Below, piece by piece: positions 27,401 to 30,400 of a stretch of 64,000 nucleotides of DNA. Origin of the DNA: Escherichia coli O157:H7 (GTDB lineage: Bacteria; Pseudomonadota; Gammaproteobacteria; Enterobacterales; Enterobacteriaceae); NCBI RefSeq assembly GCF_013167455.1, contig NZ_CP038328.1, one strand, 5' to 3'. A program made the position numbers. The stretch's first letter is position 1. Each line of letters begins with the position of its first letter.

Positions 27401-30400
27401 GAGTCGGTACGAATTCCGCGCACCGCGCGCATCGTCTGGTCGACCCGTGAAATGGGGCGGGTTTACCACGCCGCAGGGGTAGAACGCCAGGTACGTAATC
27501 TGCTGTGGAAAGGGAAATCGCAGGCAGAATTTTATCGCGGCATGGAGTGGTTGTACGGCTGGAAAGAAGATAACTGTTTGCAACCACGCTAAGCACTTCT
27601 TCACCCAATCAGGCGCACGGGCGGTCCCCTCGCCCCTTCGGGAGAGGGTTAGGGTGAGGGTAAAAATCTTGCCCGAATTAATCAGTAAGTCAGTTTGTCT
27701 GCAAACACAGGAGGCGCTAACATAGCGCCTCATTTTTTTGCGGGTGATGATATGCGTGTGTTACTGGCTCCGATGGAGGGAGTGCTTGACTCTCTGGTGC
27801 GTGAATTGCTGACCGAAGTTAACGACTACGATCTGTGCATCACCGAGTTCGTCCGCGTGGTGGATCAACTGCTGCCGGTGAAAGTCTTTCATCGCATTTG
27901 CCCTGAGCTACAAAACGCCAGCCGGACACCATCCGGTACGCTGGTGCGCGTGCAGTTGTTGGGTCAGTTCCCACAATGGCTGGCAGAGAACGCCGCCCGT
28001 GCGGTGGAATTAGGTTCCTGGGGCGTGGATCTCAATTGCGGCTGCCCGTCGAAAACGGTTAACGGTAGCGGTGGTGGGGCGACGTTACTCAAAGATCCTG
28101 AACTCATCTACCAGGGGGCAAAAGCGATGCGTGAAGCTGTACCGGCGCATTTGCCCGTCAGCGTGAAAGTGCGTCTGGGCTGGGACAGCGGTGAGAAGAA
28201 ATTTGAAATCGCCGATGCGGTTCAACAGGCTGGTGCTACGGAGCTGGTGGTGCATGGACGGACAAAAGAGCAGGGTTACCGCGCGGAGCATATTGACTGG
28301 CAGGCGATTGGCGAGATTCGCCAGCGGCTGAATATTCCGGTGATTGCCAACGGCGAAATCTGGGACTGGCAGAGCGCGCAAGAATGCATGGCGATCAGCG
28401 GCTGCGACTCAGTGATGATTGGTCGCGGGGCGCTCAATATTCCCAACCTGAGCCGGGTAGTAAAATATAACGAACCGCGAATGCCGTGGCCGGAGGTGGT
28501 TGCTTTGCTGCAAAAATATACCCGTCTGGAAAAGCAGGGCGATACCGGGTTATATCACGTAGCGCGGATTAAACAGTGGTTGAGTTATTTGCGTAAAGAA
28601 TACGATGAAGCAACAGAATTATTTCAGCATGTTCGTGTGTTGAATAATTCCCCTGATATTGCAAGGGCTATTCAGGCAATTGATATCGGTAAGCTGCGAT
28701 AATAGTGGAATCGCAGTTTATCAGAAACAATGAATCGCTTATTCAGCTTCATCATCTTGTTGCGCTCCTTTCATGAGCTAAGCCACATATTGCCACTGGC
28801 GCAAGGAGCGCGCAGGGGGAGGACAATCGCCTCCTCCCCCTGCACCCCCGGGCTCTGGCGAACAAAATCGCCGCTGCGCGGTACCTTCAGCTTATCCCCT
28901 TCGGCTACCGGGTCGGGCGCGAGGAAACGTCCTTGTAAGACGCGCCCTCAGCCCACATCCATGTGGGCTGCCCCGGCCTTCGGGGAACGCTTCAGCGATT
29001 TTGACGCCACCAACACCGGAGCTGTTTGCAAATCAAGTACACAAAATATCTAGTTCCTGACCTGACAACTTATATGTCATATCTGATTTTTAAAATATCA
29101 TCTTAAATACGCCAGTCACCACCAGTAGCCCAATCAGGAAAATAATCAATACAGCCCAGAGTATAATTTTCATTGGCGTTCCTTTATTTGTGAGTGCTGA
29201 ATAAGTATAGGAAAAAACGAAGCCCTTTGCCGTTATCCATAAACGATTAAGATAAATCGGAAGATATCATTCACTTAGTGTATATTTTTCTGGATATGTC
29301 GTTTTATTGCTACTGATGTATTGCCACGCGAAACTAAAAAATATATCGCAACACACGGTAATCTCCGCGCACCTTTTCTTACCTGATTATTCCCCCATGA
29401 ATCGTGATTCCTTTTATCCAGCCATCGCCTGTTTTCCGCTGTTACTGATGCTGGCCGGGTGTGCGCCTATGCATGAAACCCGCCAGGCGTTAAGCCAGCA
29501 AACGCCCGCTGCACAAGTTGACACCGCATTACCCACGGCGCTGAAAAATGGTTGGCCAGACAGCCAATGGTGGCTGGAGTATCACGATAATCAACTCACT
29601 TCCTTAATTAACAATGCACTACAGAACGCACCGGATATGCAGGTGGCTGAACAGCGCATTCAGTTAGCTGAAGCCCAGGCGAAGGCAGTTGCTACTCAGG
29701 ATGGTCCGCAGATCGACTTTTCTGCGGATATGGAGCGGCAAAAAATGTCGGCAGAAGGGCTAATGGGGCCGTTTGCTCTGAACGATCCGGCCGCAGGTAC
29801 GACCGGTCCGTGGTACACCAACGGAACTTTTGGCTTAACGGCGGGCTGGCATCTCGATATCTGGGGAAAGAATCGGGCGGAGGTTACTGCCCGCCTGGGT
29901 ACGGTTAAAGCACGGGCGGCGGAACGCGAGCAAACCCGCCAATTGCTGGCTGGCAGCGTAGCCCGCCTGTACTGGGAGTGGCAAACCCAGGCGGCGTTAA
30001 ACACGGTCTTGCAGCAAATCGAAAAAGAGCAGAACACCATTATCGCGACCGATCGCCAGCTATATCAGAACGGGATTACTTCTTCAGTTGAAGGTGTGGA
30101 AACCGATATTAATGCCAGCAAAACCCGGCAGCAGCTCAACGATGTCGCGGGGAAAATGAAAATTATTGAGGCACGGTTAATTGCACTCACAAATCACCAG
30201 ACTAAGTCATTGACGCTTAAACCGGTGGCGTTGCCGAAAGTGGCAAGCCAGCTTCCTGATGAACTGGGGTACTCCTTACTGGCCCGGCGGGCAGATTTGC
30301 AGGCGGCGCACTGGTACGTTGAGTCATCGCTAAGCACCATTGATGCGGCAAAAGCGGCATTTTATCCTGACATCAACCTGATGGCCTTCCTGCAACAGGA

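Follow-up and report, generated by a model that had tools for sequence, protein, structure and literature searches.

The sequence between dusC and yohP was studied in a window of 64,000 nucleotides from Escherichia coli O157:H7 (contig NZ_CP038328.1 of assembly GCF_013167455.1), and all positions given below are those of this whole stretch. dusC ends at 28702 and the minus-strand yohP ends at 29090, leaving an intergenic region of 388 bp (28703-29090) between the two convergent genes; the order is dusC, the element under study, yohP and mdtQ. A preliminary description made from the sequence alone had reported this region as non-coding and packed with GC-rich perfect palindromes. Both points hold, with two hairpins whose arms of 12 and 10 bp are 100% complementary, and NZ_AP018488.1, a RefSeq record that matches the window at 100% identity, has no annotated feature at 28703-29090. 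The element is already known and published as TRIP1c, alias RRS-dusC. We consider it probable, with considerable confidence, that the stretch is one copy of the TRIP1 family, of type TRIP1c, and that it is explained by the replication-gap model developed for K-12, with the expected consequences of its inversion given below. It is ∼290–310 bp long and lies downstream of yohP, whose strand is also that of its G-rich sense strand, and its GC content is 0.59 (0.62 in the core) compared with 0.50 for the window.

To define the family, the stretch was compared by megablast with 5,426 complete E. coli genomes. The part common to the matches corresponds to ∼28742-29051, and 17,479 places were found in 5,425 of these genomes, with a median of 3 per genome and a range of 1-8. 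Hence the proposal of a distinct dispersed-repeat family, which single-copy sequence would have contradicted, is upheld. Other copies lie between aqpZ and lysO, in an orientation that depends on the strain, and between putP and efeU, where the copy is shorter and internally deleted. The window element aligns to both of the K-12 copies that define its identity, at 90.8% over 305 bp to TRIP1a (aqpZ-lysO, window 28748-29051) and at 88.2% over 279 bp, inverted, to TRIP1c (dusC-yohP, window 28742-29018). The name TRIP1 goes back to Rudd (1999), who placed TRIP1a, TRIP1b and TRIP1c downstream of aqpZ, putP and yohI (the present dusC), respectively, TRIP1b having lost 125 bp by an internal deletion (PMC10888264). 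Li et al. (2024), working with 6,725 genomes, added TRIP1d and TRIP1e, counted 2,952 genomes with a forward and 2,789 with a reverse TRIP1c, and described large inversions between TRIP1a and TRIP1c (PMC10888264). The window element agrees with the published family (Rudd 1999; Li et al. 2024, PMC10888264) in its position directly downstream of dusC (yohI) and towards yohP and mdtQ (yohG), in its 88-91% identity to K-12 TRIP1c and TRIP1a, and in its length (∼270–310 bp), GC richness, copy number and occurrence in both orientations in the species. It differs from the K-12 allele in being a 'reverse' copy, and in flanks, including the last dusC codons, that are not those of K-12.

These differences extend into the neighbouring gene. 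The final ∼14 nt of dusC are unlike K-12 because the variable cassette begins at 28689, and DusC ends with ...AIDIGKLR* in the window and with ...AIDIEKL* in K-12. That the O157 and K-12 alleles differ merely by an inversion in place was considered and rejected: after reverse-complementing, the 279-bp core alone aligns, and the flanks and last dusC codons do not. Because the flanks and the last dusC codons differ, the alleles are old replacements rather than the products of a recent flip. The full O157-type dusC allele is present in ∼1,998 genomes (∼37% of the complete E. coli genomes), and it occurs with the same flanks in E. whittamii and another Escherichia species, at 92-98% identity.

The palindromes had been suspected to be either a distinct family of dispersed repeats or structured RNA elements. 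The dispersed nature and a conserved, covarying structure were both found, and the palindromes turned out to be helices of one ∼300-bp element and not separate units (Table 1). Structure prediction showed that both strands fold far more stably than shuffled sequence, the minus strand at -148.3 kcal/mol (z = -5.65) and the plus strand at -132.5 kcal/mol (z = -5.44). The perfect 12-bp hairpin includes half of the G-run, and its loop, GGCGAUUG, is conserved. The run itself, a predicted quadruplex, has the same tract pattern as its K-12 counterpart with two substitutions (CGGCGG to AGGAGG), for which the opposite hairpin arm compensates. In the two-hairpin core, which a covariance model built from the TRIP1 core alone (R1) matches at 175.1 bits, hairpin 1 carries the minus-strand loop ACAUGGAUGU, of the AYGGAY type, and agrees with the consensus hairpin of the Rfam family TwoAYGGAY. 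The loop region of hairpin 2 is ACAGGGAUGU in the K-12 copies, and in the copies of Kluyvera (L043) and of an Enterobacteriaceae isolate (L030) it is ACAUGGAUGU together with compensating stem changes. The observation in the preliminary description is confirmed, and its interpretation is partly supported.

Table 1. Positions of the element, its structural parts and the adjoining genes in the window
Feature	Position	Strand	Remarks
dusC	27752..28702	+	tRNA dihydrouridine(16) synthase; left neighbour of the element
Whole TRIP1c / RRS-dusC element	~28742..29051	- (G-rich 'sense' strand)	By alignment to K-12 TRIP1c and TRIP1a
Terminal hairpin GCGCUCCUU...AAGGAGCGC	28762..28811	-	Arms 28762-28770/28803-28811; 3' end of the G-rich strand
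Perfect 12-bp hairpin GCAGGGGGAGGA/TCCTCCCCCTGC	28812-28823 + 28832-28843	-	12 nt, 100% complementary, 8-nt loop
G-quadruplex-type run GGGGGTGCAGGGGGAGGAGG	28830..28849	-	Regular-expression match; K-12 counterpart GGGGGTGCAGGGGGCGGCGG
TwoAYGGAY-like core domain	28861..29004	-	Nested closing helices and two hairpins
Long-range arms	28863-28878 / 28988-29003		Paired in the fold
Hairpin 2 of the core, GGGCGCG...CGCGCCC	28915..28947	-	Minus-strand loop region UUACAAGGACGU; helices 8-9 of the consensus fold
Hairpin 1 of the two-hairpin core, CAGCCCACAT/ATGTGGGCTG	28949-28958 + 28961-28970	-	10 nt, 100% complementary
yohP	29090..29173	-	27-aa small membrane protein; right neighbour of the element

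Comparison of copies showed that this fold has been maintained. We aligned the G-rich strand of 24 distinct copies from Escherichia, Kluyvera, Pseudocitrobacter and one further Enterobacteriaceae isolate, and the consensus fold contains 68 pairs in 13 helices, with 98.8% of cells paired. Two-sided, compensatory change was found in 13 of the 68 pairs, a number reached by none of 500 shuffles, and partners slid by 1-3 columns gave at most 3. The changes fall in the closing helices, in the terminal hairpin and in the hairpin that holds half of the G-run. In helices 2-6, which form the long closing helix P1 around both hairpins, six pairs changed two-sidedly and pairing is 98-100%. The arms of the G-run hairpin (helix 12, four pairs changed two-sidedly) read GGGGGCGGC/GCCGCCCCC, GGGGGAGGA/TCCTCCCCC or CAGGGTGGT/GCCACCCTG in different copies, and GGGGGCGGC/GCCGCCCCC is also replaced by GGGGGAGGA/UCCUCCCCC or CAGGGUGGU/GCCACCCUG. 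The terminal hairpin (helix 13) changes from GCGCUCC...GGAGCGC to CGUUCAC...GUGAACG in subfamily B, a diverged group described below. The loops ACAUGGAUGU and GGCGAUUG are invariant among the aligned copies, and hairpin 1 is invariant in 24 of 24. Moreover, four near-invariant pairs of the G-rich strand are G.U, in place of which the opposite strand would have A.C mismatches; the selected fold is therefore that of the G-rich strand, which is also the strand found to be the stronger polymerase block. The secondary structure is therefore conserved, covarying, under selection and strand-asymmetric, and the pattern suggests selection on the hairpins and on specific loop sequences, beyond quadruplex potential alone.

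The function of this element has been approached from the side of replication. Pham, Cox, Goodman and colleagues independently introduced the term 'replication risk sequences' (RRS) for the copies that K-12 has close to lysO and to dusC, 222-bp GC-rich inverted repeats that each lie ∼650 kb from dif and together flank the Ter macrodomain (PMC10287960, PMC10592627). The run GGGGGTGCAGGGGGCGGCGG belongs to the lagging-strand template of K-12 (PMC10592627). The RRS block polymerases, leaving post-replication gaps on which RecA and SSB are loaded, and a clean deletion of both copies proved impossible; they were reported as conditionally essential (PMC10287960, PMC10592627). When the RRS were inverted by engineering, no RecA or SSB peak was seen in vivo and supercoiling was altered genome-wide (PMC10592627). 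According to this model, the element acts as DNA: once the fork has unwound it, the G-rich strand folds into a very stable structure of several hairpins and a G-quadruplex, and the folded strand stops the lagging-strand polymerase and leaves a single-stranded gap of ∼0.3–2 kb, on which SSB and RecA load. These steps were shown in K-12, and relief of topological stress at the edges of the Ter macrodomain has been proposed by the RRS authors. The window copy corresponds to RRS-dusC (Pham et al. 2023, PMC10287960; 2024, PMC10592627; Kusi-Appauh et al. 2026, preprint) and, judged from the alignments, is homologous to the K-12 element, at the same locus, with the form of the G-run and all helices kept, and inverted. 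A comparable case is the pilE-associated G-quadruplex of Neisseria gonorrhoeae (cited in PMC10592627), where a G-quadruplex-forming sequence likewise leads to a gap or nick in replication; however, its sequence is unrelated, and it serves antigenic variation and not chromosome topology.

For the orientation relative to replication, GC skew was calculated and is positive on the window plus strand. The layout of NZ_AP018488.1 follows that of K-12: thrL is found at 190 and dusC at 3.01 Mb on the minus strand, and the window plus strand is the minus strand of the record. It follows from the skew and the orientation of the record that the fork runs from left to right in the window and that the G-rich strand is the leading-strand template, in contrast to the lagging-strand template in K-12. 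The location of the G-run on the lagging-strand template, which applies to both K-12 loci, is thus a property of the K-12 alleles and not of the whole family, as approximately half of TRIP1c copies are reversed. The second copy of the O157:H7 genome, between aqpZ and lysO, is likewise inverted relative to K-12, and the natural arrangement of O157:H7 resembles the engineered double-inverted K-12 strain of Pham et al. In E. whittamii and Escherichia sp. E1V33 an O157-type TRIP1c is combined with a K-12-type TRIP1a, so the orientations of the two loci are not strictly coupled in the genus; within E. coli, simple counting indicates that at least ∼600 genomes must have this combination, in which the two copies become direct instead of inverted repeats. 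Because the window element is inverted, the weaker C-rich strand would face lagging-strand synthesis in O157:H7, and gaps at this site, if formed in vivo, would be expected to be rarer and smaller than in K-12. The same expectation of fewer and smaller gaps would apply to the inverted aqpZ-lysO copy.

Several observations weigh against transferring the K-12 model to the window copy. The gap function was shown solely for K-12 alleles in K-12, and a naturally inverted copy may do little as a trigger of gaps; moreover, identity between the O157 and K-12 alleles is no more than 88%, and their flanks are non-homologous. The compensatory substitutions preserve a hairpin that sequesters half of the G-run, and subfamily B has a weaker G-run; the two observations suggest selection for hairpins rather than for a quadruplex. 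In addition, the invariance of the loops ACAUGGAUGU and GGCGAUUG and the likeness to TwoAYGGAY in unrelated bacteria are unexplained if any stable fold is enough to block the polymerase.

Other explanations of the hairpins were weighed against the replication-gap model. dusC and yohP converge here, and GC-rich perfect hairpins would be suited to stall polymerase or protect RNA 3′-ends, so that the hairpins could be ordinary terminators or stabilisers of the 3′-ends of the two transcripts. However, a search of 28500-29350 on both strands found no hairpin followed by a T-run (0 sites compared with 0.7 expected), the element also occurs between co-directional genes and upstream of genes, and ∼300 bp of conserved multi-helix structure far exceeds what a terminator needs, which makes this explanation very improbable. 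Promoter-like sites in the same scan showed no excess over chance either, and an independent promoter was rejected together with terminators. An open reading frame of 107 aa on the plus strand (28730-29053) spans the element and could in principle be coding. The identical RefSeq record does not annotate it, homologous copies differ by indels of 1 nt and of other non-triplet lengths that break its frame, and the variation tracks base-pairing and not codons; we give a coding function practically no credence. The minus-strand 3′-end of the element could be read as an outward-facing ribosome-binding site followed by ATG (AAGGAGCGCAACAAGAUG). This reading was also rejected, because subfamily B has GUGAACG at this place together with a compensating opposite arm, which identifies AAGGAG as a stem arm and not a ribosome-binding site; the open reading frames downstream of the AAGGAGCGCAACAAGAUG end differ at every locus. 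The REP/BIME units are another family of GC-rich, palindromic, intergenic and dispersed sequences. As the preliminary description had stated, the element does not belong to them: the REP core (GCCKGATGCGRCG; GCC(G/T)GATGCG(A/G)CG) occurs 0 times in 28703-29090 and 8 times elsewhere in the window, and REP are imperfect ∼35-bp palindromes with hundreds of copies per genome, in contrast to a few copies of a single ∼300-bp multi-helix unit.

Another question is whether the element is a selfish or relic miniature mobile element without host function, whose structure serves transposition or recombination. Its presence at 1-8 copies per genome, its occurrence in either orientation at the same sites (aqpZ-lysO, dusC-yohP and yegH-asmA), the internally deleted and truncated copies, and the dozens of copies of related elements in Edaphovirga cremea would all be expected of such an element. 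Nevertheless the stems are internal and the ends unpaired, without terminal inverted repeats; the flanks of different copies share no duplicated motif, so no target duplication was seen, and we rejected a miniature inverted-repeat transposable element on these two grounds. Moreover, no transposase or other gene is associated with the element, each type is tied to a fixed locus, and since other Escherichia species share the O157-type allele together with its flanks (92-98% identity), this allele is old and not recently mobile. We regard a selfish or relic element without host function as improbable, and retain the replication-gap model as the best explanation.

Similarity to an RNA family adds a further aspect to the element. 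Only one Rfam family, TwoAYGGAY (RF01731), was matched in the region. The match covers 28865-29004 of the minus strand at full length, and its 25.9 bits do not reach the gathering score of 43; the K-12 copies score 30.6-30.9 bits, also below 43, and the TRIP1 copy of Kluyvera genomosp. 3 (L043) passes this score at full length with 54.2 bits (permissive filters). In the window, loop 1 (AUGGAU) fits AYGGAY and loop 2 (AAGGAC) does not; loop 2 is AGGGAU in K-12, and both loops are AUGGAU in L030 and L043. TwoAYGGAY was described by Weinberg et al. (2010, PMC2864571) from human gut metagenomes, Clostridiales and gamma-proteobacteria, with no known function, and the E. coli K-12 and Sakai accessions are not listed in their alignment. 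Gardner et al. proposed that it binds CsrA (PMC4333381). Scanning of 100,044 species genomes with the 18-mer hairpin GCCCACATCCATGTGGGC gave 81 DNA stretches with an exact match. These included the Enterobacteriaceae copies, genuine TwoAYGGAY RNAs of Lachnospiraceae (72-79 bits), and elements that occur repeatedly in Shewanella, in Edaphovirga cremea and in a Thiotrichaceae genome; many of the matches, which were coding sequences or chance matches in unrelated phyla, were set aside. The TRIP1-core covariance model gave further full-length matches that this 18-mer had not picked out. With this model, a second element located head-to-head beside the TRIP1 copy in Kluyvera, Pseudocitrobacter and the Enterobacteriaceae isolate was matched at full length with 53-65 bits (59-64 bits for Kluyvera and Pseudocitrobacter), and dozens of elements in Edaphovirga scored 22-50 bits. 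The second element adjoining the TRIP1 copy in Kluyvera and Pseudocitrobacter passes RF01731 at 49.2 bits.

The two families share two adjacent hairpins closed by a long helix and the first loop ACAUGGAUGU, on the same strand as the G-run. They differ in that the window copy reaches 25.9 and not 43 bits, its second loop is AAGGAC, and the Lachnospiraceae RNAs have no counterpart of the extra 3′ part of TRIP1. The view that best fits the TRIP1 core is thus that of a diverged TwoAYGGAY member to which a 3′ part with the G-run hairpin and the terminal hairpin has been added, with the window copy failing the family threshold. A literature search found no paper connecting TRIP1 or RRS with TwoAYGGAY, and a search with sequence strings of the element returned nothing. 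TwoAYGGAY is annotated as an RNA with no known function, whereas a DNA-level effect has been demonstrated for RRS. If the two were one cross-phylum family with one mechanism, either the TwoAYGGAY of gut Clostridia, Shewanella and others would be DNA-level devices that fold during replication and act on gaps and topology, or the enterobacterial RRS would also be a protein-binding RNA (for example for CsrA), of which the replication phenotype is only a part; we put this forward tentatively and on balance rather doubt it.

The corresponding explanation for the window is that the element is also, or instead, a structured RNA of the TwoAYGGAY class made from the G-rich strand, as part of the 3′ untranslated region of yohP here and of dusC in K-12, and that, as a decoy or a cis regulator, it binds a protein (for instance CsrA) with its two GGA loops. 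The loops resemble the CsrA consensus RUACARGGAUGU obtained by systematic evolution of ligands by exponential enrichment. An RNA would explain the invariant loops, and the covariation and G.U asymmetry in favour of the G-rich strand, the minus-strand Rfam match with the Kluyvera copy and the second element above threshold, and the proposal of CsrA binding by Gardner et al. (PMC4333381) point in the same direction; moreover, there is no terminator-like site between yohP and the element. However, the transcript is a prediction, promoter- and terminator-like signals are not above chance, and in the K-12 copy between aqpZ and lysO the G-rich strand is antisense to the genes on either side. The window copy is below the Rfam threshold with a second loop that is not AYGGAY, and the literature search linked no CsrA to the dusC locus. 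The asymmetry could also arise from G.T wobble pairs in folded single-stranded DNA, and it is activity at the DNA level that has been shown experimentally. We therefore think an RNA function unlikely, although it deserves some weight, and the replication-gap model remains our preferred reading.

Some further members of the family were noted outside the window. The intergenic region between yegH and asmA contains a sixth TRIP1-like locus (L093 645-993, L021 8300-9500, L094 564-836), which is absent from the list of five of Li et al. This copy belongs to the diverged subfamily B; two strains have it at full length, one in each orientation, and there the inverted segment is bounded by inverted REP sequences, and in L094, and apparently in most E. 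coli, it is 5′-truncated at a TACCC microhomology. At the same site O157:H7 has a RelE/ParE toxin-antitoxin insertion. In strain SCU-176 the aqpZ-lysO copy (L092 543-862) is a TRIP1a with an internal deletion that removes the two-hairpin core and keeps the ends; it resembles TRIP1b, which suggests a recurrent deletion between CCCGG(G/C)C repeats within the element. The head-to-head pairs lie ∼70 bp apart (L017 1860-2370, L075 3730-4214, L084 5296-5781, L030 1546-2128, L043 9312-9796), and with such a pair, whichever side the fork comes from, one of the G-rich strands it meets is on the lagging-strand template. Edaphovirga cremea (L044-L054) has dozens of near-identical TwoAYGGAY-like elements, which form divergent pairs and tandem clusters with A-rich spacers containing AAAGACAAAG repeats between them; the family seems to have expanded recently in this one species.

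Around the locus, a GC-rich block at 27625-27660, on the other side of dusC, had been thought to be related to the element. This relationship was rejected, as only chance matches of 8-9 nt were found, and the block is part of a separate dispersed repeat of ∼55 bp (27611-27665; CCCCTCGCCCCTTCGGGAGAGGGTTAGGGTGAGGG...), which occurs once in the window and at a detectable median of 11 places (maximum 20) in an E. coli genome. This family is probably 'box C', on which the literature search found nothing. The repeat is at the right edge of a segment of ∼6.2 kb between yohJ and dusC (21524-27711), which stands in place of 126 bp of K-12 sequence and carries genes for a fumarylacetoacetate hydrolase-family protein, a maleylacetoacetate isomerase and a 3-hydroxybenzoate 6-monooxygenase, by their look a gentisate pathway. 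On the right, mdtQ (29307-30833) is intact in O157:H7, and a K-12-type genome annotates it as a frameshifted pseudogene.

Two points are of interest for the biology of this element: both copies are naturally inverted in O157:H7, and there is a similarity to TwoAYGGAY that had not been remarked on before. With RRS engineered into this orientation, K-12 lost its RecA and SSB peaks and its supercoiling changed genome-wide, and natural strains thus offer a ready test of whether selection maintains orientation and gap formation. Moreover, the compensatory changes in the G-run hairpin, the invariant GGA loops and the match of the Kluyvera copy suggest a sequence-specific partner, and perhaps a role at the RNA level, which the G-quadruplex model does not address.

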